64,000 nt of DNA. It comes from a candidate division FCPU426 bacterium (GTDB lineage Bacteria > Oederibacteriota > Muellerivitia > Muellerivitales > Muellerivitaceae). The stretch lies in contig JAHFCG010000001.1 in assembly GCA_023249615.1 (NCBI GenBank), positions 2,257 through 66,256 on the forward strand, read 5' to 3'. Numbering within the stretch: position 1 is the stretch's first letter; each line of letters begins with the position of its first letter. Positions 4,801 through 63,609 of the stretch are shown one piece after another. Under the pieces are notes generated by a model. It did no database searches and was not told the DNA's origin. It worked only from the letters and a program-made list of their open reading frames with translations. The translations under genes and the position numbers were made by a program.

Positions 4801-7800
4801 GAATCCCATAACCGGGATTGGAAAGACTCGGGCTTCCCTGATTCGGATCGTGGTCAAGAATGGGCGCGTTCGAGTTGGAATCCTCGTTGATAATCCCAAA
4901 GTCAAACATGACCCATTTATCGATTCCGTCGTTGCAAATCCAGGTTTGAAAATAACGCGTATTGGACAAATCCGTTCCCGTGGCGGTTAAAACCTGCCTT
5001 ACCCCGGCCCAGTTCTGGCTGCTCAAGTGGGAGTAGGGAAATTGTAAAACGCTGACGACATCCTTTCCGTTTTGGGAAGAGGCCCAGGTATGTCCCCCAT
5101 AACCCGGGACACTGGTGTAATCCAGGCCGCCGGTTCCGTTTTGGGTCCCAATCTGCTGGAAATCCATTTGCGTCGCGGGAGCGCTATCATTGTAAAACCT
5201 GACCCTGTTATTGGTGAGGGTTTGGGATCCGTTGGGGGAAAGGCCGGGCAAAAAAGACGGAACGGCGAGTGGCGGGGAGGAAACCAGCCAATTGGTCGGG
5301 TTCATGGCGGGGCTGGTGGAATTATCTATTCCCTCCATGTTATCGATCATGGCCACCCCGCTTTCACCCTCGGCGTCGAAGGTGTTGGGGCTGAAATAAC
5401 TTTGAGCCACCTCACCCGACAATTTGATGTTCAAGGGCGGTTTCCAGTTTTCAAGCCCGGGGATAATTCCCGTTATGGATTGGAGGTCCTCCGGACTTAT
5501 GTCGTATTTGGCGTCCGCGTCCACGACGGCAAGGGAGTTCGGCGTTGACCCGATCTGGGGAACCTCATTGGGTTGTTGGGTGGTGGTGTAAAGGAAGGTG
5601 GAGCCAAGGAAGAAATGGTCCGTGAGGTCATATTCAGCCCTTGCCCCCAAAATATTGTTCTGGCCGAAGGAACCGAAAGGAGCGTACTCATAGGTCACCA
5701 CCACCTGGCTGTCCGGCCGCAAAAGGCTCTTATCCTGGAAATCCAGGAAGCCGGAGTTGTAATCAAAGAAATAATCGGCGTCCCTTTTCAGGCGGTGGCC
5801 GTCCAGGTAAACCGCCTCGCTTCCCCGGATGATGTTGAAGCGGTCGAGCCGGTAAAAATCCAGTTTGGTTTTATATTCCACGTGGATGCGCTTGGCGCTG
5901 GCGGGAGGGGAAGTTTGGCTGTAAACATCCCCCGGACCTGTTCCGGCGGAAGCGTCGATATTCGCGAAGGGCCTTTCCGGAAAATAAGGCGGAGCCGCGA
6001 AGGTCACGCTGGTATTGGTGACCGTTAAAAGATTCAGGTCCTGGTTGACCTGAAAGGCCCAGGGACCCGCGCCGCCGGTTTGAAGGGTGTTGTTGTTCCC
6101 CTGGTCAATGATTTGAAACAGGAATTCCGGGTCCTGCTGGGGCGGGACAATTTTATCCCGGCCCAGGTCAAAGTAATTCAAGAGGTAAAGCGGGCTCACG
6201 ACGGTTGAATTTTTATTGTCCTTGATTAAATAGGCCCGTCCCACATTGGTTACCAGTCCATTGGGATCAACCTGAAGGGTGTCCGGATTCGTCAGATCAA
6301 TTTGACCGCTCGGGTCATAACCGATGGAATTGTTGTTCCGGTCAATAAAGGCCACGGCGATCCGCGAGTTGAGGCTGAGGGCCCGGTTGAAGGTGATCAC
6401 CCCCGTGGAGTAATCGATGGTGTAATCCTTCCCCGGAAGCCAATGCTCGAAAAAACCCCGGAAAATTTTTGGATTGCTTTGATCCGGGAAAATCCCGTTG
6501 GCCGGATCCACCCAAATTTCCTCGCTGTTGCTCTGCGGCAGGGCGTTATTGACGACCTGACTGCCGATGGTGACGGGGCTGGAGGCCCGGGTAATCAAAA
6601 AATACCGGAAACGCATGTATTCAATGTCCTGGATGTCCCTTTTCACCTGGACATAGTTCCCCTTGAAGACCTTGGTTTCGGAAATTCCCTTGGTCTGGGC
6701 GAAAAAGGAGGAAAAGCGGAACCTGTCAAACTTCAATTTCGCCTGGAGGCCGAATAATTTTTTGCTGAAACCGGCGAACTCGGTATTCGGCAGGTAAAGA
6801 TCCAGATCGCCGAAAGCCACTTCCTGGATGGGGCTGTCCTCGTTCCCGTGGTAAACGATGGAAATATTTTGCTTGGTCTGGTCCACTCCCCCCGTCCCGG
6901 TGCCGTTGTTTCGATTCACGTCGCTGTAATCCACGTTGACGTCGACGTTCTTCCCCACCTTCCCCTGCAGGTTCACCACCAATTCCTGGTTGACCTGGGT
7001 ATTGTTGTTGTCGGCGGAAATGGCGGTAATTTTGGGATCACGGTTGAAATGCTGGAAGCTGAAAACCGCCTCAATTTTTTTGTACCCCTGGATCGAAAGC
7101 TGGGTATCCGCCGGCAATTGCAAATTGATGATCTTTTGCTGGGGAACGTCCAAGACCTTCTCTTCTTCCGGGGGCAGGGTGGCCTTGGGTTTGAGGGCTT
7201 CCGCCTTTTCCTCCTCCGTCAGGGGAATTTCCAGTCCCTGGGGAGTCACGGTATTTTCCTCGGAATAGGCGCCGACCGTTCCCTGCGAATCCACGGCGGC
7301 CACCACGTAAAAATAATCCTCACCGTTTTTGGGGGCCGAAAGACTGTTTTGGGCGCCGTCCAGGAAATAAGGGGCCGGCAGGGGTTTTAAATTGACCAAC
7401 TTGTATCCGATTCCAGGAACCGTCGAACGGTAGACGTTATAAGACACCACGTGGGAGGGCACCGGAGCGGAATCCCAGGAAAGATAAACGCCATCCTTGA
7501 GGGTCAGTATTTTGATGCCCGTGGGGACCGGAGGAGGGCCAAAGGAAGTCACGGGAGCCGAGGTGGCCCCGGGAGTGGGGGTGTTCCCAATGTAATCAAT
7601 CCCGTCCAGGACCTGGATTTCTTCCTGGGGGCTTAAGTTCAAATCCTTGGCGGGAGTGGTAATGCTTTTTTGCGACACAGGCCCTGGCGTGGGGGTTTGC
7701 GCGAACGCTGAATTCGACGCTGTTAGGAAAACTATCCCCAAAATGACCAGAAGGATCTTGGTTGGCCCCCCCAAAGAACCTGCCGGGCGGCAGGTTTTCT

Positions 7801-7970: not shown

Positions 7971-8116
7971 CCCTCTCCCCTCAAGGGAGAAGGGGGAAAA
8001 ATGAAACCTAACCCTGCCTTACTGCCTGGTTTTAAAATCCAAGCCGGTTTAAAAAAAATTTAAAACCCTGACAACAACCCCCTCTCCATCAAGGGGAGAG
8101 GGCGGCGCGAAGCGCC
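7971..8116. repeat. Two related hairpins (tctccc-ctcaa-gggaga and ccctctcc-atcaagg-ggagaggg) plus a ggcgcGAAgcgcc hairpin
   Basis: Motif CCCCTCAAGGG(G), shared with 10284-10352. Confidence 0.5.
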
Positions 8117-8143: not shown

Positions 8144-8893
8144 TCAATCCAACCCCAGGGCTTTTTTCAAATCATCCAAACGTTCCCGGCTTACCGGCAG
8201 GCGTGTTTTGGCCGTGTCGGATAAAACCGCCATGTATTTCCTGTCCCCCTCATGGTCCAACTCCTTCAGGTAATCCAGGTTGATGATGGCGCTCCGGTGG
8301 ATCCTCAGGAATTTTTCGGGATCCAACCGCTGGGCAAGGGCGTCCAGCCGGTCATCCGCCAGAAGCTCCTGGCCTTCCACCAGCAAAAGGGCGTAATGGT
8401 CCTTGGCCACAATGGCGGAAACCTGGGTTGGGTTAAACACCCGGTACTTGGCCCCGCACTTGATGGCCATCCGCCTTTTCGCGTTTCCTTCCTCCATTTT
8501 TTTGAAGAATTCCCTGCGGTCGGTCTGGGTTTTAGGATTTTTTCTTTTCCGGATTCTTTCAATGGTTTCACCCAGTCTTTCGGGTACCACGGGTTTGACA
8601 AGATAATCCACGGCCGAAAGTTCAAATGCCTTCAGCGCGTGTTCGCTGTAGGCCGTGACGAAAACCACCGCTGGTCCTTCCCCGCCCCAGGCCTCGGCAA
8701 CTTCCAGGCCGTTGAGCTCCGGCATCTCGATATCCAAAAAGACCAGATCCGGCTGAAGTGTTTGCGCGACCTGAAGAGCCTCCAAACCATTGGAGGCCTC
8801 GCCGACAACCTTCAGGTCCGAAAAAACCGCCAGCATCCTGGCAAGCCGGGAACGGGCGGGTGCTTCATCATCCACAATCAGGGCCTTAATCAT
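8144..8893 (-). CDS. Response regulator with an N-terminal receiver domain and a C-terminal LytTR DNA-binding domain
   Basis: MIKALIVDDE...DLVFLDIEMPELNGLEV receiver motifs; the C-terminal half is LytTR-like; it overlaps the upstream kinase by 4 nt. Confidence 0.85.
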   Translation of the reverse strand: MIKALIVDDEAPARSRLARMLAVFSDLKVVGEASNGLEALQVAQTLQPDLVFLDIEMPELNGLEVAEAWGGEGPAVVFVTAYSEHALKAFELSAVDYLVKPVVPERLGETIERIRKRKNPKTQTDRREFFKKMEEGNAKRRMAIKCGAKYRVFNPTQVSAIVAKDHYALLLVEGQELLADDRLDALAQRLDPEKFLRIHRSAIINLDYLKELDHEGDRKYMAVLSDTAKTRLPVSRERLDDLKKALGLD

Positions 8894-13593: not shown

Positions 13594-14379
13594 TTAGCGG
13601 ACAATTCCGCGGCTTGAGGTGCTTAAAAACTCGATGAGAATTTTTATTTCTTCCGTTGGCTGAAAATCAGCCGACAAGGCCAGGATCGCCTCTTTAACCG
13701 TCAGGTTATTCCGAAAAATGACCTTATGCGCCTTTTTAAGGAGGTCGATGGTTTCCTTCGGAAATTGGCAGCGTTCCAAACCAACCTGGTTGATCCCGAT
13801 AATCCGAAGAGGCTCGTCCCCGGCGATCATATAGGGAAGAACATCCTGGACCACCCGGAAACCTCCCCCAATCATGGCGTGTTGGCCGATATGGACGAAC
13901 TGATGGACCGGGGTTCCTCCCCCGACGGTGGCGAAATCCTCGATGACAGCGTGTCCTCCCAGCATGACCCCGTTGGCCAACTTGACGTGGTTTTTAATGA
14001 CGCAGTTGTGCCCCACGTGGGTTTGAATCATGAGCCAGTTGTCATTCCCGATAACGGTTTTGGAACCTTCCCCCGTGCCGGGATTAATGGTGACGTACTC
14101 GCGGATAATATTTTCATCGCCGATTTCCAGGAAGGTTTCTTCGCCCGCATATTTCACGTCCTGGGGCTCACTGCCGATGACCGCTCCCGTAAAAATCCTG
14201 TTTCGTCTTCCCAGGAAGGTATTTCCCGTGATGACGCAGTGGGATCCCACATGGGTCCCTTCCCCCAGGGTGACATGGGCGTCCACGACGGAATAAGGGC
14301 CGATGGCCACACCTTCCCCCAAATGAGCCTTGGGGTCCACCAGCGCGGTCGGATGAATTTTTAACGAAGACACCGGCAT
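13594..14379 (-). CDS. lpxA: Acyl-ACP--UDP-GlcNAc O-acyltransferase LpxA
   Basis: Hexapeptide-repeat left-handed beta-helix sequence (IHPTALVDPKAHLGEGVAIGPYSVV...) in a lipid-A gene neighbourhood. Confidence 0.85.
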   Translation of the reverse strand: MPVSSLKIHPTALVDPKAHLGEGVAIGPYSVVDAHVTLGEGTHVGSHCVITGNTFLGRRNRIFTGAVIGSEPQDVKYAGEETFLEIGDENIIREYVTINPGTGEGSKTVIGNDNWLMIQTHVGHNCVIKNHVKLANGVMLGGHAVIEDFATVGGGTPVHQFVHIGQHAMIGGGFRVVQDVLPYMIAGDEPLRIIGINQVGLERCQFPKETIDLLKKAHKVIFRNNLTVKEAILALSADFQPTEEIKILIEFLSTSSRGIVR

Positions 14380-14381
14380 CT

Positions 14382-15716
14382 TTACGATTCCTTTTTAATA
14401 GAGTCCATATCCACGATGGCGCAGGTGATCTCCGCTTCCACGGCGGTCTGCCCGTCAACAATGGCCTTACCCGCGATTTTTCCTATTTTGGACCGGACAA
14501 ACAAAACCTCTATCTCAAACCTGATCTGGTCCCCCGGCATGATGGGTTTACGAAACCGGGCGTTATCCACTCCGGCCAAATACAAAATCTTTCCCTTGTT
14601 CGCGGGTTCACAAAGAAAGGCGATTCCCCCCGCCTGGGCCATGGCTTCAATCACCAGGACCCCCGGCATGATGGGATGCCCCGGAAAGTGCCCCTGAAAA
14701 AAGGGTTCGTTGATGGTGACGTTCTTGACGGCCACCACCTTTTTGTTGGGTTCCAGCTCCAAAATCCTGTCGACCAAAAGAAAAGGGTACCGGTGGGGCA
14801 GTATTTTTTGGATTTCCAAGATGTCTAACATGGGTCTCTCTCCCGATTCTTTTTTTGTTTTTTCCGCGCCATTTCCAAATTTTTCCAGAATGGCTTTCGC
14901 CAGTTCCACGTGATATCGATGCCCCGCCTTTCGGACGGTTACCTTCGCCCAAAGAGGGCGGTTCAAAAGTTTCAGATCCCCCAGTAAATCCAGGGTCTTG
15001 TGGCGGACAATTTCATCCTCATGGCGGAGGGGGCCGTTCACAATCCCCTTTTTTCCCATCACGACCGCGCAGGAAAAATCCCCGCCCTTGATGAGTCCCT
15101 GACGGCGCAATTCCTCGATTTCTTCCTCGAAACAAAAGGTTCGGGCCTGGGCCAACTCCTTTTCAAAACTTCCATCTTTTAATTCAAAAACCCGGTTCTG
15201 GTTTTCCAACCCGGGATAGGGAAAGGAAGTCGTCACATCAAGAAACAAACCCTCCGCCGGCTCGACCTTTAGTGAAACATCTTTGAAATTCACCTCAAAA
15301 GAATCCGTAACCTTCAGGGGTGTGGCGGGTGTTTCCTGATCCAAAATACCGGCTTTGTTAAAATATCCGCAAAAAGGAACAGCGCTTCCATCCAAAATCG
15401 GCATTTCCTCGGCGTCCATCTCCACTTTTAGGTTATCCAAACCAAAACCGTGAACGGTCGCTAAAAAATGTTCCACGGTATGAATACTTGCCTTCTTTTC
15501 CCCTGTCAGCGTGGTTCCCCGGGCCGTGTTGGTGACCGAAAAGGGGGAAAGGGGAATTTTAGCCCCTAAATCGCTCCGGATAAAAAGGATTCCGGAACCC
15601 GGCGGCAGGGGGGAAACCGTGACCTTGCATTTTTTCCCGGTGTGCAACCCTATTCCTTCGAATGAAAAAGGGCTTTTTATTGTTTTTTGGGTCCTAATTC
15701 CCTTTTCACTTTTCAT
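14382..15716 (-). CDS. lpxC/fabZ: Bifunctional LpxC deacetylase / FabZ dehydratase fusion
   Basis: The N-terminal half is LpxC-like ([17 protein letters not shown]...HTVEHFLA) and the C-terminal half is a FabZ hot-dog ([14 protein letters not shown]...[13 protein letters not shown]). Confidence 0.85.
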
Positions 15717-16749
15717 CTTTTTTAATGCCTTGAATTTTTTCCAGGGCCCTTTCCAGGTTTCGAACCCTTTTGATCAATTCCGGTAATTGCCGACTGGCGG
15801 CGACGCGTTTCATTTCGGCGGAAAACTCGCTGGAGGGCGAGCCGAAATAATTCCCTTTTTCCGGAATGTCCTCCATGACTCCCGTCCGGGTATGCAAAAT
15901 GACATTGTCCCCGATCTTGAGATGGCCCGCGATTCCCACTTGGCCTCCCATGATCACCTGGTTTCCGATTTGGGTGGACCCGGAAATTCCGGTCAAGGCC
16001 GCCATGACGGTATTTTCACCTATCACCACGTTATGGCCGATTTGAATCAGGTTATCGAGCTTGGTTCCCTTCCCGATTCTCGTGCTCCCCAATACCGCGC
16101 GGTCCACGCAGGTGTTGGAGCCAAGTTCAACGTCATCCTCAAGGACCGCGTTGCCCACCTGGGGGATTTTCACGTATTTCTCCCCATCCCGGGCGAAACC
16201 AAAACCATCGGAACCGACCACAGCCCCGGGTTGAAGAATAACCCGGTTGCCCAGGACGCAATTTTCACGAACGGTCGTGTTGGAATAAAGAAGGCAATCC
16301 TCTCCGATGGACGCGTTTTCCCCGATAAAGACTCCCGGAAAAAGGATGGATCGGGGACCGATTACCGCCCCGGCCGACACAAAAGCCCCCGGGGAAATAC
16401 TGGCATGAGGATGAACTTTTGCGGTTGCATCCACGAAGGAACCCGTTTTGGCCCCTTGCGATGGAACCGCGGAGGGGTAAAAAAGACCTATGATCTTGGC
16501 GAGAGCCAGATAGGGATTCGAGGTCAACAAACAGGGCTTGGAGAACCCGGGGATTTCCTTTTCCGTCAAAAGAACGGAGGCCCCCGTGGTAGCGGCCTTT
16601 TTGGCATAACGGGGATTGGTCAGGAAGGTTAAATCACCCTTTCCAGCCGACTCCAGGGAAGCCACCCCGGTCAGAAGGAAAGTTCCATCTCCCCGTACGG
16701 TTCCGCCGACCTCTGCCGCCAAACGTTCCAAAGAAAAAGAATTTTTCAT
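15706..16749 (-). CDS. lpxD: UDP-3-O-acylglucosamine N-acyltransferase LpxD
   Basis: Hexapeptide repeats throughout, ~347 aa, positioned between skp and lpxC/fabZ. Confidence 0.85.
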
Positions 16750-20140: not shown

Positions 20141-20483
20141 TGGTGGAGGTGGTGGGAATCGAACCCACGTCCTGAAAAACATCCGTAATGGGCACTACGT
20201 GCGTAGCTCCGGAATGAGTCTCGCTCTCCGCTCGCTCCCGAGCGGCCGGCGAAGAGCCAGTCCCTTTGGTTCTCGTCCGCTCATCGGTGGAACAACCCTG
20301 TTGCGGACCAGCCTACTACTTACGTCCCGTTCCCTTAATAGGCATCAAGGACAAGACGCTAACCGCTTTAAGCGGCCAGAGCTAACTGATTGTCGGCAGT
20401 TAAACCGTTGCCATGTTTGACGAGCGATGGCGCCTCGACACGCACCCAAAAGTTCAGCTTCCCAGTCGAAACCGGTCACCCCC
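20141..20483 (-). ncRNA. ssrA: tmRNA (SsrA), one-piece
   Basis: The minus-strand 5' end is GGGGGTGACCGGTTTCGACTGGG and the 3' end is GGTTCGATTCCCACCACCTCCACCA (tRNA-Ala-like T-arm/acceptor + CCA). The internal tag ORF GCC GAC AAT CAG TTA GCT CTG GCC GCT TAA encodes ADNQLALAA* (20368-20397). Confidence 0.9.
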
Positions 20484-22318: not shown

Positions 22319-23143
22319 TCACCCGATCGCGACCAAAAACAATCCCGTTAATATCAATCCCCCGCCCAGCGCCTTTTGCTTCCAACCTGTTCTTTCTTTC
22401 AACAAAAAGTAACTAAAAAAGAACCCAAAAAGAAGATTAGCCCGTACCAAGGGATTAATCTTGGACGCGGGTGAGTGGCTTAAAGCGACATAGAATAAAA
22501 CTGAAGCGAGGAAGGACCAAAAAGCCGGAGCAAGGATTTTTTTCCATTCCTTTACCATGATCTTGGGCCGCAAACGGGAGTTCGCCAGACTTTCCAATGG
22601 GACGAGGAACAATGCACCAATCCCGAAAGACCAAAAAGCGAAAAACATCGGAGGTGAATCAGCCAAAGCCATTTTATTCACGATAACACCCGCCGTGGAA
22701 AAAACAGCTCCCCATAGACCTCCCCAGGACCATCCGCCCATCCGGTGAAAAATAAAAGCTCCCATGGCGATAAGAATTCCCCCGGCGACCAGGGATCCTG
22801 ATTGGGCCTCACCTAAAATAATTGGCGCGGCCAGTACCGTAAAAAAGGGCGTAAGATTATAAAAGGCGTAGGTGGTGTAATAATCTTTTTGCACCCCCCT
22901 GACCAGCATCCAGGTTCTCAATCCCTCAAAAAAACCAGCGAGAAGGGTTAATCCCCACCATTTTAAGGAAAGGGGCCAAGTCCACTGAAACAAGGCCAAG
23001 GGAAGGAGCATCAGGGCCGTCAAAAGACGAAAGACCAGGGTGAACTCTCGGGGAGAAACCCGATGTAAAATTTTCTTGGAAAGGGCCGTCCAAAGGGCGT
23101 TAAAGAAGCCGGCCACCACCGCCATCCCGAGCCACAGCATCAA
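22319..23143 (-). CDS. EamA/DMT-family transporter, tandem paralog
   Basis: Same architecture and similar local motifs as the neighbouring transporter. Confidence 0.7.
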   Translation of the reverse strand: MMLWLGMAVVAGFFNALWTALSKKILHRVSPREFTLVFRLLTALMLLPLALFQWTWPLSLKWWGLTLLAGFFEGLRTWMLVRGVQKDYYTTYAFYNLTPFFTVLAAPIILGEAQSGSLVAGGILIAMGAFIFHRMGGWSWGGLWGAVFSTAGVIVNKMALADSPPMFFAFWSFGIGALFLVPLESLANSRLRPKIMVKEWKKILAPAFWSFLASVLFYVALSHSPASKINPLVRANLLFGFFFSYFLLKERTGWKQKALGGGLILTGLFLVAIG

Positions 23144-23157
23144 AGCACGACCCTTTT

Positions 23158-23255
23158 AGCCACCGATGAATGGGATGAATACGGATACCCAAAAGGGAAT
23201 TTCCTGTTTTTCAAAAAAAGATTTAAAGCCATCTGTGTTTATCGGTGTTCATCGG
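23158..23255. repeat. Related element: GCCACCGATGAA ... TTATCGGtgttcATCGGTGGC (phased ATCGG repeats, outer 12-bp inverted repeat)
   Basis: ATCGG at 23241 and 23251; the inverse arm is at 23158-23169. Confidence 0.5.
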
Positions 23256-23259
23256 TGGC

Positions 23260-23685
23260 TCAATGGCTTGCGATTGGTTCTTCGTCGAACTGTTCCTTGT
23301 CATTCAATACCCATGATTTCATAGAGGTGAACTTACCCTTTTGGATGGACATGATGACGTAGGAAAAACCAGGCCAAGCCGCCTGTCGGTCTGTTTCCGA
23401 GGCTTTATCAGTGTGATCAGGATGGGAATGGAATATCCCCAGAACATCCAATCCCTTTTGCCGGGCGAGGGCTTCCCCCTTCATATAATCTTTAGGATCC
23501 ATGTCATATCGGGTTTCGGGCTTGAGTTTATTCAGGTTGCCGCATTCAAAAACTTCCGTGACGACACGGGGTTCCCCCGCCTTTCCAAACATAAACCCGC
23601 AAATCTCATAGGGATATCCCTTTTCGGCAATAGCGATCATGACTTTCTTCGCCTGTTCATTTTTAAAAGAAATCATTATTCCCAC
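23260..23685 (-). CDS. JAMM/MPN+ (Mov34) metalloprotease, Mec+/QbsD-like
   Basis: EICGFMFGK...FHSHPDHTDKASETD fits the JAMM ExnHxHx7Sx2D motif. It overlaps the upstream cysteine synthase by 10 nt. Confidence 0.8.
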   Translation of the reverse strand: MGIMISFKNEQAKKVMIAIAEKGYPYEICGFMFGKAGEPRVVTEVFECGNLNKLKPETRYDMDPKDYMKGEALARQKGLDVLGIFHSHPDHTDKASETDRQAAWPGFSYVIMSIQKGKFTSMKSWVLNDKEQFDEEPIASH

Positions 23686-24626
23686 ACTCTTGTCGATAAA
23701 TATTTATCTCCAGAGTCCGGGAAAATGGTGACGATGCAACCCTTTTTAATCTCCTTCGCCAATTGAACGCAGCCCGCCATCGCGCCTCCGGAAGAAAGAC
23801 CCGCCAGGATTCCCTCTTTGCGGGCCAAGACCTTCACCCATTCGTAACTTTCATCCGTATCAATATCAATATGCTGGTCATAGGAATTCTTGTCATAAAT
23901 CCCAGGCACGATGGAGGAGGCCATGTGTTTCAGCCCTTCCAACCCATGGAAAGGCTGGGACGGTTCCATGGCCACTACCTTAATAGATGGTTTCATTTCC
24001 TTTAGGCGCTTTCCTGTTCCGATGAGGGTTCCGCTGGTTCCAATTCCCGCCGCGAAATGAGTGATCCTATCTCCCAACAATTCCATGATTTCCTCGGCGG
24101 TCGTGAGCGTATGCGCTTTTGGATTTTCGGGATTGTTGTATTGGTCGGGGACAAAATATTTTTCAGGGTCTTTTTTATAAAGTTCTCGCGCCAAAAGAAT
24201 GGCGCCGTCCGACCCTTCCATCTCGCTGGAAAAGTGGACTTCGGCGTTAAAAGACTTCAAGATTCGTTTGCGTTCATCACTGACGTTGGCAGGAAGAGCC
24301 AAAACCACCCTGTAACCAAGGGCCGCCCCGATCATGGCGTAAGCGATACCGGTATTACCCGAGGTCGCGTCAAGGATGGCTTTGTCCTTCGTGAGCTTCC
24401 CGTTTTTGAGACCTTCCTGAATCATTCGCAGGGCGGGACGGTCCTTGACGGATCCGCCGGGGTTGAAGGACTCGAGCTTGGCGAAAATTTCAACACCAGG
24501 CACATTATGGGAATGGATCTGAACCATGGGGGTGCGGCCGACTAATTCCGTGACGCTTTCGAAGATTCTGGGTGGATTGGAAATGGAAACAGCCACGGAA
24601 ACCTCCTTAGGCACATCTAGCACCAA
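23676..24626 (-). CDS. cysM: PLP-dependent cysteine synthase (CysM/CysK family)
   Basis: ...GRTPMVQ...KLESFNPGGSVKDRPA...TSGNTGIAYAMIGAALGY. The probable true start is a GTG at about 24596, preceded by an AAGGAGGT Shine-Dalgarno. Confidence 0.85.
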   Translation of the reverse strand: MVLDVPKEVSVAVSISNPPRIFESVTELVGRTPMVQIHSHNVPGVEIFAKLESFNPGGSVKDRPALRMIQEGLKNGKLTKDKAILDATSGNTGIAYAMIGAALGYRVVLALPANVSDERKRILKSFNAEVHFSSEMEGSDGAILLARELYKKDPEKYFVPDQYNNPENPKAHTLTTAEEIMELLGDRITHFAAGIGTSGTLIGTGKRLKEMKPSIKVVAMEPSQPFHGLEGLKHMASSIVPGIYDKNSYDQHIDIDTDESYEWVKVLARKEGILAGLSSGGAMAGCVQLAKEIKKGCIVTIFPDSGDKYLSTRVWE

Positions 24627-24716
24627 GACTCCAAGCCACCAAGAAAATATTTTATTTCAGGAGCCTGTTTCCAATCCAATTTTCAAAATCTTGGCGTCTT
24701 GGAGTCTTGGAGCTAG
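24617..24716. repeat. Inverted-repeat element with CCAAGACNCCAAG arms around an AT-rich core (family copy 1)
   Basis: Left arm ctagcaccaagactccaagccaccaagaaa; right arm aatcttggcgtcttggagtcttggagctag. Confidence 0.6.
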
Positions 24717-24724
24717 ACTTGGTG

Positions 24725-30730: not shown

Positions 30731-30840
30731 AACCGCCAAGACGCCAAGGGCGCCAAGAACGGCAAATTCAAAAGCACACACATTTTAAACCCTTTTGTTT
30801 AAAGGGAATTTTTTTCTTGGCGCCCTTGGCGTCTTGGCCG
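30731..30840. repeat. Inverted-repeat element of the CCAAGACGCCAAG family (copy 2), with a 27-bp near-perfect stem
   Basis: accgccaagacgccaagggcgccaagaa ... ttcttggcgcccttggcgtcttggccg. Confidence 0.65.
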
Positions 30841-30848
30841 TGGAATGA

Positions 30849-38953: not shown

Positions 38954-40048
38954 CTATCGGCGGTTTAAAAGCGCGTTTATTTCCTGGGCCATTTGGGACA
39001 GGGGTACCTGCCGGTCCACCATTCCCGAATCCACCGCGGCCTTGGGCATCCCGTAAACCACGCAGCTGCCGGCGTCCTGGGCGAACGTTTTTCCCCCCAC
39101 GGCATGAATATCCTTCAAACCCGCGGTTCCGTCCCTGCCCATTCCGGTCAGGATAACTCCCATGCATTGCTTGCCCGCTGTTTTGGCTACAGAGCTCATC
39201 ATGATATCGGCGGAGGGTTTTACGCCCAGCCTTGGGGGGTGATCATTAAAACCAAACTTGTAATGCCCGGCACCTCCCTCAAGAACCAGGTGAAGGCCCG
39301 CCGGGGCGACATAAGCGTGGCCCCCCATGAGATACTCTCCATCCTCCGCCTCTGAAACCTCCAGGCGGCTGACCTCACCCAGGCGCCTGGCCAGGGCTTT
39401 CGTGAAACCCACCGAAATATGCTGAACAATCACGAAAGCGACGCTCGAACTCCGGTTTAAATTGGAAAACAATTCATTGAGCGCCCTGGGCCCTCCGGTT
39501 GAGGAGGCCACCGCCACGATAAAAGTGGCCGGTTTATCCCTTTCAACCGTTTCTGGTTCGGCAGGCTTGACATTTTTTTTTACCGTGGATTCGGCGGAGA
39601 CTCCTTCCAATTCCTTGTTTCGGCGGGGCTTGCAAAGGGAGGCCATTTTTATTTTCTCGACCAATTCTCCCTGGATTGCCTTGGCGTTTTCCAAAACGCG
39701 CCCTGCCGGTTTACCGATACAATCGATGGCTCCCAGTTCGAGGGCCCTGATGGTTGTTTCGGTTCCCTTGCCTGTATGGCTGGAGATCATGACAACGGGA
39801 GTTGGCGAATCCTTCATTATTTTTTCGAGGGCGGCCAACCCGTCCATCTTGGGCATTTCCACGTCGAGCGTGATGACGTCCGGTTTCAACTTTTTGGCTT
39901 TTTCGACCGCCTCGAGCCCGTTCTGGGCGGTGTCCAAGACGGTGATTTCCCCATTGGTGGTATTCAGGATTTCAGACAGGATTTTTCTCATGAAAAAAGA
40001 ATCGTCGACGATAAGAACACGGATGGTTTTGGATTTTTCAGCCGTCAT
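38954..40048 (-). CDS. cheB: Chemotaxis methylesterase CheB (REC + CheB_methylest)
   Basis: IRVLIVDDSFFMRK receiver followed by a methylesterase domain (GASTGG...). Confidence 0.9.
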   Translation of the reverse strand: MTAEKSKTIRVLIVDDSFFMRKILSEILNTTNGEITVLDTAQNGLEAVEKAKKLKPDVITLDVEMPKMDGLAALEKIMKDSPTPVVMISSHTGKGTETTIRALELGAIDCIGKPAGRVLENAKAIQGELVEKIKMASLCKPRRNKELEGVSAESTVKKNVKPAEPETVERDKPATFIVAVASSTGGPRALNELFSNLNRSSSVAFVIVQHISVGFTKALARRLGEVSRLEVSEAEDGEYLMGGHAYVAPAGLHLVLEGGAGHYKFGFNDHPPRLGVKPSADIMMSSVAKTAGKQCMGVILTGMGRDGTAGLKDIHAVGGKTFAQDAGSCVVYGMPKAAVDSGMVDRQVPLSQMAQEINALLNRR

Positions 40049-40104
40049 GGAGGTTCCCGGTCAAATTACGGTTTGTCTTAAAAAGCTCAAAACGACTTTT
40101 GCCG

Positions 40105-40184
40105 CCGATCAAATCCGATACACGCCGATAAATCAAAATTATTTTTTACAGTTTGTAGTAATCGGCGTCCATCGGAAGTTATCG
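40105..40184. repeat. Palindromic element made of three 10-bp-phased CCGAT units, an AT-rich spacer, and three 10-bp-phased ATCGG units
   Basis: gCCGCCGATcaaaTCCGATacacGCCGATaaatc...gtaATCGGcgtccATCGGaagttATCGGCGGttg. Confidence 0.6.
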
Positions 40185-40207
40185 GCGGTTGCTTTTTTTC
40201 TTAACTT

Positions 40208-40618
40208 TCAAGCCCCGACGACCCGCTTCAAGGCTTCCTGGACGCGGGGCGGCTGGAAAGGTTTGATGATAAAGTCCCGAGCACCGGCCTGAATGGAATC
40301 AATAACCATGCTTTGCTGGCCCATGGCGCTTACCATGACGATTTTAGCCTCCGGGTCAAAGGCCCTGATTTCCCTAACGGCTTCAATGCCGTCCAATTCC
40401 GGCATGACAATATCCATGGTGACCAAATCAGGTTTTAATTTTTTATATAATTCCACGGCTTCCCGACCATTGGAAGCTTCCCCTGCCAATTCATAGGGTT
40501 CCCTTAAAATAATCCCCTTTAAGATGGTCCTCATGAAGGAGGAGTCGTCGCAAAATAAAACTTTGATGGCCAAGGCTTTTTCCTTATTTGGGGATTGCGG
40601 CTTCCGAATCCACGACAA
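40208..40618 (-). CDS. cheY: CheY-like single-domain response regulator
   Basis: VLFCDDSSFMR...DLVTMDIVMPELDGIEA. Confidence 0.85.
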   Translation of the reverse strand: MSWIRKPQSPNKEKALAIKVLFCDDSSFMRTILKGIILREPYELAGEASNGREAVELYKKLKPDLVTMDIVMPELDGIEAVREIRAFDPEAKIVMVSAMGQQSMVIDSIQAGARDFIIKPFQPPRVQEALKRVVGA

Positions 40619-58873: not shown

Positions 58874-58903
58874 TAAATCTCCAGAACTAAAAAGCTAAAA
58901 GAT

Positions 58904-59018
58904 GTCATTGCGAGGAGACCGTAATACGGTCGAGGAAGCAATCAGAAGCTAACAAAAAAATTCAGTTTTTTGTTGCATTGGATTGCCACGTCGGTCCGCA
59001 GGACCTCCTCGCAATGAC
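58904..59018. repeat. Structured intergenic element with a 14-bp outer inverted repeat (GTCATTGCGAGGAG / CTCCTCGCAATGAC) enclosing three small hairpins
   Basis: Hairpins gaccgtaatacggtc, caaaaaaattcagttttttg and ggtccgcaggacc. Confidence 0.5.
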
Positions 59019-59037
59019 AACAACCTTTTGTCTCACC

Positions 59038-61587
59038 CTATTCCGTAGGTGGCATCTGTTCGAAAATTTTATACATTTCTTCGTTACTTTTTAATTTTGC
59101 CCGCTCTTCCAAGATTTTATTTTTTTCAACTTCAACCATTGTTGCGGGCGCCTTCTTCAAAAATTCTTGGTTTGAAAGTCTCCCCTTCTTCGACTCGATT
59201 GATTTTTCCAATCTTTCCATTTCTTTTTTCAGTCTATTCATTTCAACGTTCTTGTTAATAAAACCCTCAACATGAAAACACAATTCACCGCCGCCAATCG
59301 GGACAGCGACCGCCAATGGAGAACGACCGATCAAATGTTCAAAATCCCGTTCATTAATGCGGGCTAAAAGTTTTAGGATTTTTACGTTTTCCTTCAACTG
59401 AAGGAATACACTTCTTTCCCCAACAAAAGTGATTTTTATCTCGGCACCAGGCAGAACACTCAGTTCACCGCGAATAACGCGAATTGCAGTTATAGCCTCT
59501 TTTAGCAACTCAAAGTCCTTGACGGCTTTTTCATCCGCCGGATAATCCCCCGGCAGGGGCCAAGAGGATTTCATGATGCTTTCCGAACGCCCCGGCAGTT
59601 TGAACCACAATTCCTCGGTCACGAACGGAATCACGGGATGAAGAAGACGCAAAACTCCCTCCAGAACCGCGATAACAACGGACGCGGCAAGTTTCTTTTC
59701 CGGAGAGTCGGGCTCCAGATAAAGCCTGGGCTTCAACGCCTCCAGGTACCAGTCGCAAACTTCGTTCCACAAAAAGCGGTAGAGGGTTTGGGAAAACTCG
59801 GCCACCCGGTATTTTTCGTAGTCGGAAGTAACCTCCGCGGTGACTTGGGAAAGGCGGGTCAGGATCCACCTGTCCTCAAGCTTCAAATTCTCCCAGTCTG
59901 GTTTTTCCAAGGGTTTCACTTCAGTACCATCCGCCAACCCCATCAAAACAAACCTTGTCGCGTTATAAAGTTTATTGACGAAATTCCGGCAGGATTCCAG
60001 CTTTTGGGGCGTCAAAGCGACATAACGCTGTTTGGTCTCGATGGAGGTCAGGGTAAACCGTAGGGCATCGGTTCCGTACTTATCGATCAAATCCAGTGGA
60101 TCGACCACATTCCCTTTCGACTTGCTCATCTTCTTGCCTTCGGCGTCCGCCACCAGGGAATACATGTAAACTTCCCGAAAAGGAACGTCGCCCATGAATT
60201 TCATTCCCATCATCATCATTCGCGCGACCCAGAAAAATATTATGTCCCAGCTCGTCACCAAAACAGTGGTGGGATAAAAAAGTTGGAGGTCATTTGTTTT
60301 TTCAGGCCAACCCAGCGTGGAAAAAGGCCACAACCCGGAAGAAAACCAGGTGTCCAGAACATCCGGATCCTGTTCAAACTTGGCTCCCTTGCACTTGGAA
60401 CATGTTTTCGGCTGGGTTTCAGACGCGGTCTGAATTCCACAATCCTGGCAGGTATAAACGGGGATTCGGTGCCCCCACCAAAGCTGGCGGCTGATGCACC
60501 AATCGTGGATGTTCGTCAGCCATTTTTCAAATTCACCCCGCCAGGCCTCCGGGACGAATTTGGTTTTTCCCTCGGCCACGGCCTTCAGCGCCAAATCCGC
60601 CAAAGGTTTCATTTTCACGAACCATTGCTTGGAATAGTAGGGCTCCACCACCGTCCCGCAGCGGGAACAATGACCGACATTGTGTTCATGCGGCTCCACC
60701 TTGATAAGGGTTCCCAGCGCCTCCAGATCCGCCACGATTTTTTTGCGGGCGTCCAACACCCGCATCCCTTTGTAGATGCCGGCGTTTTCGTTCAGGGTCC
60801 CGTCGGGGTTCAGGATGTTGACCCGGGGGAGCTGATGCCGGTTCCCCATGGCGAAGTCGTTGAAATCATGGGCGGGAGTGATCTTGACGACGCCGGTTCC
60901 GAATTCCTTGTCCACCGAATCGTCCTGGATAATGGGAATCCGCCGGTTGACCAGGGGAAGGTTCACCGATTTTCCCACCAATCCGGCGTAGCGGTAATCT
61001 TCCGGGTGAACGGCGACCGCGGTATCGCCCAAAAGCGTCTCGGGTCTTGTGGTGGCCACTTCCAGACCGTCGGCGGTGTCATGAACAAAGGAATAGCGGA
61101 GATGGTAAAAATTTCCTTGGATGGTTTTGTGTTCCACCTCGATATCCGAAAGCGCCGTTTGGCACCTGGGGCACCAGCTGATGAGGTAGTAATCCTGGTA
61201 AATCAATTTTTCGTTGAAAAGATCGATAAAAACTTTTTGAACCGCGCGGGACAATCCATCGTCCATCGTGAAACGCTCGCGGGTCCAGTCGCAGGAAGCC
61301 CCCAGTTTTCGCAGTTGGCCCATGATGGTAGCGCCGTACTTCTCCTTCCATTCCCAGGTCCGTTTAATAAACGCCTCCCGGCCCAGATCATGACGGGACT
61401 TCCCTTCTTTTTTAAGCTCCCTCTCAACAACGTTTTGGGTGGCGATTCCCGCGTGGTCGCAGCCCGGAAGCCAAAGTACATTGAACCCATTCATGCGCTT
61501 GTACCGGGCGATCAGGTCCTGAAGCGTGACATTGAGGGCGTGGCCGATATGGAGGCTTCCCGTGACATTGGGAGGAGGAATCACCAT
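59038..61587 (-). CDS. valS: Valine--tRNA ligase, main frame. The N-terminal ~33 codons appear to lie in another frame (see findings), with the probable real start at about 61688.
   Basis: MVIPPPNVTGSLHIGHALN (HIGH region)...KMSKSKGNV, anticodon-binding domain and C-terminal coiled coil. Confidence 0.9.
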   Translation of the reverse strand: MVIPPPNVTGSLHIGHALNVTLQDLIARYKRMNGFNVLWLPGCDHAGIATQNVVERELKKEGKSRHDLGREAFIKRTWEWKEKYGATIMGQLRKLGASCDWTRERFTMDDGLSRAVQKVFIDLFNEKLIYQDYYLISWCPRCQTALSDIEVEHKTIQGNFYHLRYSFVHDTADGLEVATTRPETLLGDTAVAVHPEDYRYAGLVGKSVNLPLVNRRIPIIQDDSVDKEFGTGVVKITPAHDFNDFAMGNRHQLPRVNILNPDGTLNENAGIYKGMRVLDARKKIVADLEALGTLIKVEPHEHNVGHCSRCGTVVEPYYSKQWFVKMKPLADLALKAVAEGKTKFVPEAWRGEFEKWLTNIHDWCISRQLWWGHRIPVYTCQDCGIQTASETQPKTCSKCKGAKFEQDPDVLDTWFSSGLWPFSTLGWPEKTNDLQLFYPTTVLVTSWDIIFFWVARMMMMGMKFMGDVPFREVYMYSLVADAEGKKMSKSKGNVVDPLDLIDKYGTDALRFTLTSIETKQRYVALTPQKLESCRNFVNKLYNATRFVLMGLADGTEVKPLEKPDWENLKLEDRWILTRLSQVTAEVTSDYEKYRVAEFSQTLYRFLWNEVCDWYLEALKPRLYLEPDSPEKKLAASVVIAVLEGVLRLLHPVIPFVTEELWFKLPGRSESIMKSSWPLPGDYPADEKAVKDFELLKEAITAIRVIRGELSVLPGAEIKITFVGERSVFLQLKENVKILKLLARINERDFEHLIGRSPLAVAVPIGGGELCFHVEGFINKNVEMNRLKKEMERLEKSIESKKGRLSNQEFLKKAPATMVEVEKNKILEERAKLKSNEEMYKIFEQMPPTE

Positions 61588-61710
61588 GCTAAAATTGGGT
61601 TTTTGGGAAACCCGTGAAGCGGTAAAGACCCCTCAACTTCCTTGGGCTCATAGGCTGGGGGAAGGTTTATATTCTGGTTTTCTTGCATTATTTTTCTCGT
61701 TTAAATTTTT

Positions 61711-62082
61711 TTACGCAGATAACGGCCGGTAAAGACCGATGGGTTCAAAAAGGGTTAACCAGTCTCCGAATTTCCATTTTTTTCTTCCAAAGTTCAGCAA
61801 AAGACAAACCTTAAGCTTGGTTGCTTTCAAATAGTTGTAACACTGGGCGACGTGAGCCGGATCCAAAATTTTAACCGCTTTTAACTCAACCAATACGCAT
61901 ACCTCAACCAACAAATCCGCGATATGTTCACCGACAAAAACCCCGTCGTACATTACCCGAATGGCAAACTGCTGTTTGACTTCATGTCCTTCTTTCCGCA
62001 ATTCGTGAGCCAAGGCATTTTCATAAATCTTTTCAAAAAAAACCCGCGCCCAATTCACCACCAACTTTAAAAGCATGCCCAA
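61711..62082 (-). CDS. GxxExxY family protein (PD-(D/E)XK-like)
   Basis: YENALAHELRKEGHEVKQQ...DLLVE..VLVELKAV...YNYLKATKLKVCLLLNFG matches the family pattern. Confidence 0.7.
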   Translation of the reverse strand: MGMLLKLVVNWARVFFEKIYENALAHELRKEGHEVKQQFAIRVMYDGVFVGEHIADLLVEVCVLVELKAVKILDPAHVAQCYNYLKATKLKVCLLLNFGRKKWKFGDWLTLFEPIGLYRPLSA

Positions 62083-62148
62083 TCACTTTTTCGGTTATGG
62101 CGTCCAACTCACCCGCGAATTTATTGGGCATTATTTCCCCACTTCGTT

Positions 62149-62173
62149 ATCGGCCTTTATCGGTCTTGTCGGC
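62149..62173. repeat. Related half-element: TTATCGGcctTTATCGGtcttgTCGGCG (10-bp phased)
   Basis: ATCGG at 62149 and 62159, and TCGG at 62169. Confidence 0.4.
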
Positions 62174-62785: not shown

Positions 62786-63532
62786 TTATTGGGAAATTTG
62801 TAAAAATTCGGAGGTGGCGCTTACAACCTTGTCGGAAAAATCGGTCAAATTCCCGGAACTGGAATATTTTTTGATGTCGGAGGTGGAGGATAAAAACAGC
62901 GGGGTTAATACCACGGAGGGAAGGGTAAGGAACCTCAAACTTTGATGGGGGAGGCAAAAAACCTTTCCTTCGGGAGAGGTGGGCTCACCGGCAAGACCGC
63001 GGGTGTCGGAAAGATTTGAAAACTCGGTGTTTACACCGAGTTTTTGCCCGATGGCCCTGGCCAATTTCAGGCTGGAATGGTATAGGGCGGGGGAAACGAA
63101 ACCCCATTTTTGGATTTCGAGGGAATCACCGGCTTCGGGCCTGGTAGGAGGTTCCGCGACAAGATAGGGGCCCCTTTGGGCGCCGGTCCATTCTCGGTCG
63201 ACGTGAAGAATGATGACGGCGGAAGCCTGCGAGGTGTTAATCAATTCAATTCTTTTTTCGGGGGTAATGACACTGTCGCCCTTCCGGATCATGACAACCT
63301 CAAACCCGGCTCCCTCGAAGGCTTTTTGAAGGGCTTGGGCAATTTTGTAATTCCAATCCTTCTCAACCTCGGACTTGAACTTGACCCCGGGATCATTTCC
63401 CCCGTGAGCGGCGTCCAGAACCACCCGCGGCTTGGCCATGGCCGGGGCCGAGGCCATTAACCATAAAACCGCCAAGCCGGCGCCAAGACGCCAAGACGCC
63501 AAGAAAAAATATTTTTTAAATTTTGAAGCCAT
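62786..63532 (-). CDS. N-acetylmuramoyl-L-alanine amidase (Amidase_3, AmiC-like)
   Basis: Signal peptide followed by VVLDAAHGGNDPG, the zinc-amidase signature. Confidence 0.85.
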   Translation of the reverse strand: MASKFKKYFFLASWRLGAGLAVLWLMASAPAMAKPRVVLDAAHGGNDPGVKFKSEVEKDWNYKIAQALQKAFEGAGFEVVMIRKGDSVITPEKRIELINTSQASAVIILHVDREWTGAQRGPYLVAEPPTRPEAGDSLEIQKWGFVSPALYHSSLKLARAIGQKLGVNTEFSNLSDTRGLAGEPTSPEGKVFCLPHQSLRFLTLPSVVLTPLFLSSTSDIKKYSSSGNLTDFSDKVVSATSEFLQISQ

Positions 63533-63609
63533 AAAAAATTCACCTTTATAAAAAAAATTTCTTGTTATGAAGACGTTTAGGAAGGCAAACTTGGCGTCTT
63601 GGAGTCTCG
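63469..63609. repeat. Inverted-repeat element of the CCAAGACGCCAAG family (copy 3); it spans the amidase start codon
   Basis: gccaagccggcgccaagacgccaagacgccaagaaaaaat ... aaacttggcgtcttggagtctcg. Confidence 0.55.

Follow-up and report, generated by a model that had tools for sequence, protein, structure and literature searches.

We examined three long inverted repeats, which we call E1, E2, and E3, in a stretch of 64,000 nucleotides from a candidate division FCPU426 bacterium (assembly GCA_023249615.1, contig JAHFCG010000001.1, positions 2,257 to 66,256). We refer to the whole stretch as the window. We think that E1–E3 belong to a family of mini-cassettes, bounded by hairpins and spread across many phyla, whose full form carries a GxxExxY gene and of which E1–E3 would be the gene-less ("solo") form; we put the probability of this reading at roughly 0.6. 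The members of the family have inverted arms of 2–5 tandem units of 8–9 bp (CRCCAAGN and related flavors), with ends of the form TGAACCRCC...GGYGGTTCA. The arms enclose either a short AT-rich loop, in the solo form, or a GxxExxY gene of ~125 codons whose product has the PD-(D/E)xK fold, in the full form. We file E1–E3 under the gene-less form because their arms, termini, insertion context, and presence/absence behavior are common with those of the GxxExxY cassettes.

A preliminary description of the window had proposed that the three repeats form a family resembling transposable elements of the miniature inverted-repeat kind (MITEs) or repetitive extragenic palindromes (REPs). A repeated inverted-repeat family of this kind is indeed supported, with copies that are present or absent between relatives. 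The interpretation as a whole holds only in part: it missed the spread across many phyla, and it missed that the same arms are the termini of GxxExxY cassettes.

Position and structure of E1, E2, and E3

The three elements lie between the genes that the preliminary description named, all of which are on the minus strand:

E1, 30732..30841, between topA and argB: gene-less hairpin; arms 30732-30759 and 30814-30841 (28 nt, 96% complementary); loop of 54 nt, 31% GC.
E2, 24616..24717, between eno and cysM: gene-less hairpin; arms 24616-24644 and 24689-24717 (29 nt, 90% complementary); loop of 44 nt, 27% GC.
E3, 63469..63609, between accA and the gene for an Amidase_3 protein: gene-less hairpin; left array on the plus strand 63469-63503 (four units), right arm 63590-63609; loop of 86 nt, 21% GC.

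The inverted repeats were confirmed at all three places, with arm alignments that are 90–96% complementary. (The best-pairing arms of E3 are 63486-63503 and 63590-63607, which are 18 nt long and 94% complementary, but its left array reaches 63469.) The arms are built from 2–4 tandem units of 8–9 bp, of the type CRCCAAGN (for example, CGCCAAGA, CACCAAGA, and CTCCAAGA). Each side of each element has at least two tandem units at 8–10-bp spacing with a CRCNRAG-type core: three units per arm in E1 and in E2, and four and two in E3. Each arm of E1 consists of CCAAGACG, CCAAGGGCG, and CCAAGAA, and the units of E2 are a mixture of CACCAAG, CTCCAAG, and CGCCAAG. The termini of E1, ACCGCCAAG...CTTGGCCGT, are of the (TG)AACCRCC type that is shared with the gene-bearing cassettes; the terminus of E2 is a variant, TCTAGCACCAAG. 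The loops are AT-rich and are not related to each other. At 44–86 nt, they contain no ORF, and in particular no GxxExxY gene, so all three elements are of the gene-less form. The loop of E3 does hold the ATG of the amidase gene (63532).

The arm motif that the three elements were said to share is far more common in the window than expected. With up to two mismatches allowed, the 13-mer CCAAGACGCCAAG occurs 13 times, versus 1.9 expected, and none of 100 shuffles reached 13. The paired-array pattern has three matches in the window, versus 0 expected. The preliminary description had also suggested RNA folding as a check. The predicted folding energies of E1, E2, and E3 are -65, -55, and -53 kcal/mol, which is far more stable than shuffled sequence in each case (z = -6.3, -6.7, and -3.8).

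All three elements are in stop-to-ribosome-binding-site (RBS) spacers of co-directional or convergent genes, and their presence varies among relatives. On the gene strand, E1 begins 7 nt past the topA stop (30849) and ends 20 nt short of the argB ATG (30711). E2 begins 7 nt past the eno stop (24725), and its end is 7 nt short of the RBS (24602-24608) of cysM, whose true start is probably the GTG at 24596. E1 and E2 thus fill the spacer between stop and RBS and are nearer to the upstream stop than to the downstream start, which does not agree with the earlier placement of the elements at the 5' ends of genes, overlapping promoters. We also noticed that ORF callers run host genes into the arms: this happens at a TTG start for cysM (24626), at 63532 in the window, and at positions 6601-6680 of another locus, L024, where ...LGALGVLAV... 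opens a gene.

E3 is older, and one of its arms is part of a protein. The preliminary description placed an arm of E3 within the signal-peptide region of the amidase gene. That the arm is recruited into the coding region stands, but it is the 3' arm on the transcribed strand. This arm encodes LASWRLGAGLAV of the predicted signal peptide, and the array at 63469-63503 translates as the predicted hydrophobic core. In a relative (L211), the orthologous element at the E3 site has arms that have shifted in step to the CGAAG flavor (GCCACGAAG...CTTCGTGGC), and the core of the signal peptide again comes from the 3' arm (AASWLCLGFFL). In another relative (L209), the site has no element and the spacer is only 21 nt. 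The amidase orthologs all have a signal peptide that ends just ahead of KPR. The arm of E3 is recruited as coding sequence for this signal peptide.

The hairpin family and its GxxExxY genes

Using one genome per species, we scanned for the pattern CCAAGNNNCCAAG-N60-90-CTTGGNNNCTTGG and found at least 119 loci with the paired-array architecture (TGAACCGCCAAG...CTTGGCGGTTCA). The preliminary description named, as what would refute it, a total of just three copies without conserved boundaries; this is clearly not so, as the copies number in the hundreds and their TGAACCRCCAAG termini are conserved. The phyla and the counts in this and the next two paragraphs are among the matches listed. They come from Planctomycetota, Verrucomicrobiota, Alpha-, Beta-, and Gammaproteobacteria, Acidobacteriota, Myxococcota (including complete Sorangium chromosomes), Armatimonadota, Chloroflexota, and others. 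Their common design is (T)TGAACCG-CCAAGRCG-CCAAGnnCG-CCAAG, a variable loop, and then the mirror image. (A nested CCAAG-type inverted repeat is also found in a bin labeled as an archaeon, a Methanocella sp. metagenome-assembled genome, at L029 5953-6178; this is either true cross-domain presence or mis-binning.) The medians for 126 elements are 32 nt for the arm, 54 nt for the loop, and 119 nt for the whole. Units are spaced by 8 bp in 381 cases, 9 bp in 126, and 10 bp in 19. The loops of different copies are unrelated, save for a few adjacent pairs, and the G+C content of the loop is below that of its own locus in 113 of the 126 elements. We also considered unpaired arrays as possible ends of longer elements, but most of these are hairpins whose partner arm has decayed.

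The two arms of a copy vary together. At variable positions, the match to the partner arm is 0.98–0.99 within a copy, versus 0.44–0.51 between copies. Among 60 distinct sequences, 96% of cells are paired, and there are 95 two-sided changes, versus 26 ± 4 in shuffles (none of 500 reached 95). This shows that the complementarity of the arms is maintained or regenerated, which is compatible with pairing at the RNA level or the DNA level. One base pair adjoining the outermost CCAAG on its inner side (columns 10 and 29 of the family alignment A4) fails to pair in 18 of the 60 distinct copies, while its neighbors are paired in 87–100% of them. Either a conserved mismatch or a trace left by unit-register shuffling may account for this.

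The genomic context of the family resembles that of E1–E3. By a crude heuristic calling of ORFs, 93 elements could be classified by context: the neighboring genes are co-directional at 64 of them, convergent at 21, and divergent at 8. The elements lie a median of 18.5 nt from the upstream stop and 34.5 nt from the next start.

In 3 of the 119 loci listed (L013, L110, and L040), an ORF of ~125 codons lies between or beside CCAAG arms. These arm-associated ORFs match TIGR04256 ("GxxExxY protein"; E = 3e-41) and PF13366 (PDDEXK_3; E = 8e-42). A sequence search of solved structures with GxxExxY found no match, and the top Foldseek match is a PD-(D/E)xK homing endonuclease, which is weak (E = 0.096). 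A 2012 survey of PD-(D/E)xK proteins lists the function of PDDEXK_3 as "Unknown" and reports multiple transfers between divisions (PMC3424549). We found more than 4000 close homologs of the GxxExxY protein.

We then asked what surrounds GxxExxY genes in metagenomes. Among the 80 metagenomic loci that are most similar to a CCAAG-flanked query, a choice that inflates the CCAAG share, at least three CCAAG/CTTGG cores lie within 130 nt of 60 of the 75 distinct GxxExxY genes. Most of the other genes have the same flank design in an ACAGAG, GCAGAG, CAAAG, or CGAAG flavor, and C.C..AG is conserved across all arm flavors. In 55 of 72 GxxExxY loci, the flanks on the two sides of the gene form inverted repeats, well beyond what shuffled controls give. 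The usual topology is arm-gene-arm, with the gene in the loop; R-gene-L and hairpin-gene-hairpin are rarer. (At L133 1400-1960, a GxxExxY gene is flanked by two identical, complete 80-nt hairpins in direct orientation, an arrangement that could be composite or resemble attC.) Gene-bearing and gene-less copies alike end most often in TGAACC (26 of 48 cassettes and 18 of 55 solos).

In many cassettes, the left terminus provides the start codon of the gene: ATGAACCGCCAAG or ATGAACCGCCAAGACGCCAAG reads MNRQDAK. The translated arm, MNRQDAK.AK, opens annotated GxxExxY proteins in Sorangium, Polyangiaceae, Planctomycetota, and Blastocatellia, and some annotated GxxExxY proteins end with ...LGVLAV, from the other arm. 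The cassettes are also placed like the solo hairpins. Of 50 upstream host genes, 41 have the same orientation as the GxxExxY gene (41:9), as do 45 of 52 downstream ones (45:7). Isolates have the same cassette, set into operons in sense orientation, as in Sphingomonas parapaucimobilis (fabD-TTCACGCGAAGGCGCGAGGACGCGAAG-GxxExxY-...CTTCGCGTGAA-RBS-fabG) and Bacteroides finegoldii (radA-TTCACCACAGAGGACGCAGAGG...-GxxExxY-...CTCTGTGGTGAA).

Copies of the family are present or absent between relatives, without target duplication. Four related genomes (with ArgB 77–86% identical) keep the gene order cheA...dprA-topA-argB-nrdR-DUF1015-eno-cysM but have no CCAAG arrays there. In these relatives, which lack E1 and E2, the topA-argB spacers are 55, 10, 366, and 8 nt. 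The eno-cysM spacers are 21, 182, and 62 nt, and the relatives without E2 include L121 and L127. The loci L024 and L079 are a filled and an empty site in nearly identical dehydrogenase operons, with flanks that are ~90% identical. The empty site (L079) reads TAG-GC-GGGAGC, where GGGAGC is the RBS; in L024, ~118 bp, including the hairpin, lie between the stop codon and the same RBS. No target duplication is visible at this pair of loci, nor at E1–E3. Finally, a search of 2.9 million viral contigs found 18 matches to the hairpin and no relatives of GxxExxY, so phages are not an evident vector.

Other hairpins in the window

The preliminary description counted three copies, but there are more in the window, with arms of another flavor:

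40102..40188: hairpin of the CCGAT flavor, the fourth in the window; three units per arm at 10-11-bp spacing; terminus AACCGCCGAT (compare AACCGCCAAG).
23143..23275: degenerate hairpin of the CCGAT flavor; left-arm units CACCGATGAA, CACCGATAAA, and CACAGATGG; right arm only TTCATCGGTGGC; 79% complementary.
61711..62166, minus strand: gene-bearing family member; GxxExxY (PD-(D/E)xK) gene with its ATG at 62131 and its stop at 61711.

The hairpin at 40102-40188 begins 19 nt past the stop of the gene at 40208-40618, and the following gene begins at 40048. Its predicted RNA fold has an energy of -43.5 kcal/mol (z = -6.3).

The GxxExxY cassette is inserted between a Germane-domain gene and valS and has imperfect inverted arms of the CCGATAA type at ~62146-62166 and ~61717-61740. 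It is missing from the same spacer in relatives, which is 59 nt in L209 and L210 and ~100 nt in L211. Near 62030 (62020-62040), where intact homologs read G-F-(L/F)-E, the reading frame of the gene shifts by +1 within a run of 8 T. The gene could be a pseudogene, or the frameshift could reflect an assembly error or slippage. Beside the cassette, the 5' end of valS (61587-61700) is ~30 nt shorter than in L211 (in the ARWYEIWEKS region), and the long ORF begins only at MVIPPPNVTG; either the assembly is in error here or the sequence next to the insertion has been rearranged.

At 58903-59019 there is a long hairpin of a different family (TGTCATTGCGAGGAG...CTCCTCGCAATGACA, with small inner hairpins), which begins 19 nt past the valS stop and ends 30 nt short of the gene that follows. 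A member of that family also takes up the 366-nt topA-argB spacer of L125 (9634-10001; GTCATTGCGA...), so different hairpin families use the same kind of spacer. At 7971-8102, a small palindrome (CCCTCTCCCC-TTGA-GGGGAGAGGG) occurs twice in a structure that resembles a REP doublet and begins 42 nt past the stop of the gene at 8144-8893. The window also has a tmRNA gene at 20141-20483 on the minus strand (Rfam RF00023, 173 bits).

Alternative explanations and related systems

The preliminary description suggested that the elements act as insulators that combine a terminator and a promoter, and we found nothing that supports this. A consensus scan found no sigma-70-like promoter on the gene strand in the loop of E1, E2, or E3. 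A scan for a stem followed by a T-tract found no intrinsic terminator for E1 or E2 on the strand of the genes, and at E3 it found just a 5-bp stem (63482-63470) inside the 3' arm, within the amidase ORF. The loops, at 44–86 nt, also differ from the short loop of an intrinsic terminator. Across the 64 co-directional members listed, the T content of the 12 nt past the stem is 0.34, versus 0.35 for A on the mirror side; the lack of a T-tract asymmetry speaks against a canonical terminator. In Rfam, only the tmRNA reaches the curated gathering threshold in the window, and E1–E3 are below the threshold of any family. In a permissive search, they match only models of miRNA hairpins, at 31 bits versus thresholds of 87–98 bits.

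Several observations weigh against our view that E1–E3 are the solo form of GxxExxY cassettes. The window's own GxxExxY gene has arms of the CCGAT type and a frameshift, and the window contains no CCAAG-flanked gene that could be the donor for E1–E3. We did not find an orthologous site that has a solo in one genome and a cassette in another, and either direction of descent is possible. The flavor of the arms does not strictly follow the relatedness of the GxxExxY proteins, and this loose correspondence argues against base-specific recognition by the protein. Mismatches in the arms show no preference for G-U on the transcribed strand (49 versus 43 among the matches listed), so they give no direct indication that an RNA stem is under selection. 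The share of metagenomic GxxExxY genes with CCAAG arms is inflated by how their loci were chosen. Also, we infer both the nuclease activity of GxxExxY and any role for it in mobility; no movement was observed.

What else could these hairpins be? They might be primary, self-standing elements, with the GxxExxY gene as a passenger or as a homing-type invader of their loops. The variety of topologies would fit this (a gene in the loop, a gene between two identical complete hairpins as in L133, and R-gene-L), as would the arm flavor being untied to the phylogeny of the GxxExxY proteins, the excess of hairpins over genes (more than 126 versus 3 in ~950 kb of the loci listed), and the weak Foldseek match to a homing endonuclease (E = 0.096). 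But no other enzyme is enriched near the hairpins (the largest clusters of neighbors, as identified by motif reading, are widespread housekeeping paralogs: ABC ATPases, GGDEF proteins, and SDRs), and a joint evolution of arm and gene is suggested by the start codon within the terminus (ATGAACC). We consider hairpins with a late-coming gene to be unlikely. Alternatively, the hairpins could be selected by the host at the RNA level, as with the REP sequences of E. coli, for stabilizing the upstream mRNA, attenuating read-through, or slowing terminating ribosomes, and the link to GxxExxY would be incidental. Hairpin function does not need a common arm sequence across unrelated phyla, and yet the family has one. 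Furthermore, the same spacers are hairpin-free in close relatives with the same operons, the same arms bound a nuclease gene, and the T-tract, the sense-strand G-U bias, and the Rfam match are all lacking. These observations make selection by the host quite improbable, even though the stems are very stable, their complementarity is maintained, the elements begin at a median of 18.5 nt past the upstream stop, and divergent contexts are rare (8 of 93, among the matches listed). Liang, Rudd and Deutscher reportedly found in 2015 that REP hairpins within ~15 nt of the stop codon lower the expression of the upstream gene.

We also weighed three further readings. One is the REP/REPIN elements that are moved by RAYT, an IS200-like Y1 transposase. 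The arms of our family are tandem octamers, not palindromes of 20–40 nt with a GTAG or CGTC tag; the gene that they bracket is GxxExxY, not RAYT; and a survey of such repeats has no CCAAG or CTTGG motif (PMC3733652). With a single Y1 query, which is a weak test, tblastn found no homolog in the window or in the loci except for the query's own source, L125. So, despite the hairpin doublet, the extragenic location, the lack of target duplication, and the analogy to a REPtron gene flanked by inverted repeats (PMC3733652, PMC3337134), we think that RAYT is very unlikely to be involved. (In L125, at 13980-14860 and 14895-15833, a 312-aa Y1_Tnp (IS200-like) protein is preceded by ~900 bp of tandem arrays (gtaagtcgggcggtaagcc; caacccagttccaaagccgggaacc; agttctcgggttctcggct) that are unrelated to the CCAAG family.) Another is classical MITEs, derived from an insertion sequence with a DDE transposase. 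The elements are of a suitable size (~100–140 bp, below ~300 bp), are non-coding, have terminal inverted repeats, and are present or absent between genomes. They lack target-site duplications, at E1–E3 and at L024/L079; the interiors of copies from the same genome are unrelated, so there is no homology over the whole length; and in ~1.2 Mb of flanking sequence we saw no insertion sequence with the ends of the elements, which are shared only with the GxxExxY gene. A MITE origin is therefore highly improbable. We give equally little credence to arrays of binding sites for a conserved protein on duplex DNA, that is, inverted sets of 8-bp direct repeats around an AT-rich core. Such arrays would account for the strict periodicity of the units, for C.C..AG in all flavors, and for the absence of strand asymmetry. 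They would not account for the varying spacing (8, 9, or 10 bp in 381, 126, and 19 cases), unit number, and flavor, or for the absence of the elements from relatives. Also, partner arms match even at positions that vary freely, which fits pairing or copying and not a fixed operator.

Returning to hairpin-bounded cassettes with a GxxExxY gene in their full form, we can sketch how they might work. The family would be selfish DNA, able to survive in places where host operons are transcribed through it. The GxxExxY nuclease would probably spread it, through structure-specific cleavage or through a homing-type break that is repaired via the conserved arms, and through these arms it may also convert empty hairpins. 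The solo hairpins would be non-autonomous copies or relics. In a polycistronic RNA, the arms would be expected to form a stem of ~27 bp, by analogy with the intervening sequences that RNase III excises from 23S rRNA; this stem would bury the start codon of the cassette and could uncouple the neighboring cistrons. If argB, cysM, or the amidase gene is affected at all, this would then probably be a by-product, with the exception of E3, whose arm serves the amidase as signal-peptide coding sequence.

It is possible, but we advance this only tentatively, that GxxExxY proteins (PF13366) are the mobilizing nucleases of a previously undescribed class of mobile element. Such an element would be a hairpin-bounded mini-cassette that uses its tandem-octamer arms as a recognition or homology module, inserts into operon spacers without target duplication, has a terminus that provides its start codon, and leaves gene-less hairpins in large numbers in many phyla. 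If so, then a partnership like that of REPIN and RAYT would be run by a PD-(D/E)xK enzyme, not by a HUH, DDE, serine, or tyrosine enzyme. In full-text searches of the literature, we found no description of a CCAAG-arm element or of repeat-bounded GxxExxY genes.

The family matters for several reasons. GxxExxY/PDDEXK_3 is a very large family without a known function, and a repeat-bounded element that is gained and lost gives it a concrete role that can be tested. N-termini of the MNRQDAKDAK type and peptides of the LGVLGVLAV type in annotated proteins are explained as translated arms. The family also provides a source for the long hairpins in the housekeeping operons of many phyla (topA-argB, eno-cysM, and fabD-fabG), which bears on how those operons are expressed. 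And it is a systematic source of errors in annotation, as start codons are mis-called through the arms.

Among known systems, the REP/REPIN-RAYT elements (REPtrons) are similar in having abundant extragenic hairpin doublets, a small gene that is bracketed by inverted repeats, and no target duplication. Their gene-less copies also far outnumber the gene-bearing ones, and their expression is probably by read-through from upstream (PMC3733652, PMC3337134). In contrast to the single, tagged (GTAG/CGTC) palindromes of REPs, the arms of our family are tandem 8–9-bp units; the gene has the PD-(D/E)xK fold instead of encoding a HUH/Y1 transposase; the arm sequence recurs across phyla, whereas REPs are lineage-specific; and the loops are unrelated between copies.

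The architecture also resembles the intervening sequences of 23S rRNA that carry an ORF for the S23p four-helix bundle. In both, terminal repeats form a stem of ~28 bp (27–28 bp in E1) around a small ORF without a known function, and the sporadic distribution suggests horizontal transfer. The intervening sequences are tolerated because RNase III cuts the stem out of the host transcript (PMC4990558). They are located in helix 25 or 45 of 23S rRNA, and not in the spacers of protein-coding operons; they have a different family of ORF; and their arms are not octamer repeats. The comparison is of architecture alone.

Bacterial MITEs (such as Correia/NEMIS, RUP, and MITEAba12) are likewise short, non-coding, intergenic, bounded by terminal inverted repeats, and polymorphic between strains. 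Some of them are co-transcribed and processed at the RNA level. Our family differs in that it has no target-site duplication, no parent with a DDE transposase, and no conserved interior. Finally, the attC sites of integrons are imperfect inverted repeats of ~60–140 bp with conserved ends and a variable center, found at the 3' ends of genes, and the hairpin-gene-hairpin arrangement in L133 is reminiscent of them. The consensus for attC is RYYYAAC/GTTRRRY, which the ends of our family do not fit. Unlike attC sites, the members of this family are not accompanied by an integrase or a cassette array, and their hosts are housekeeping operons.

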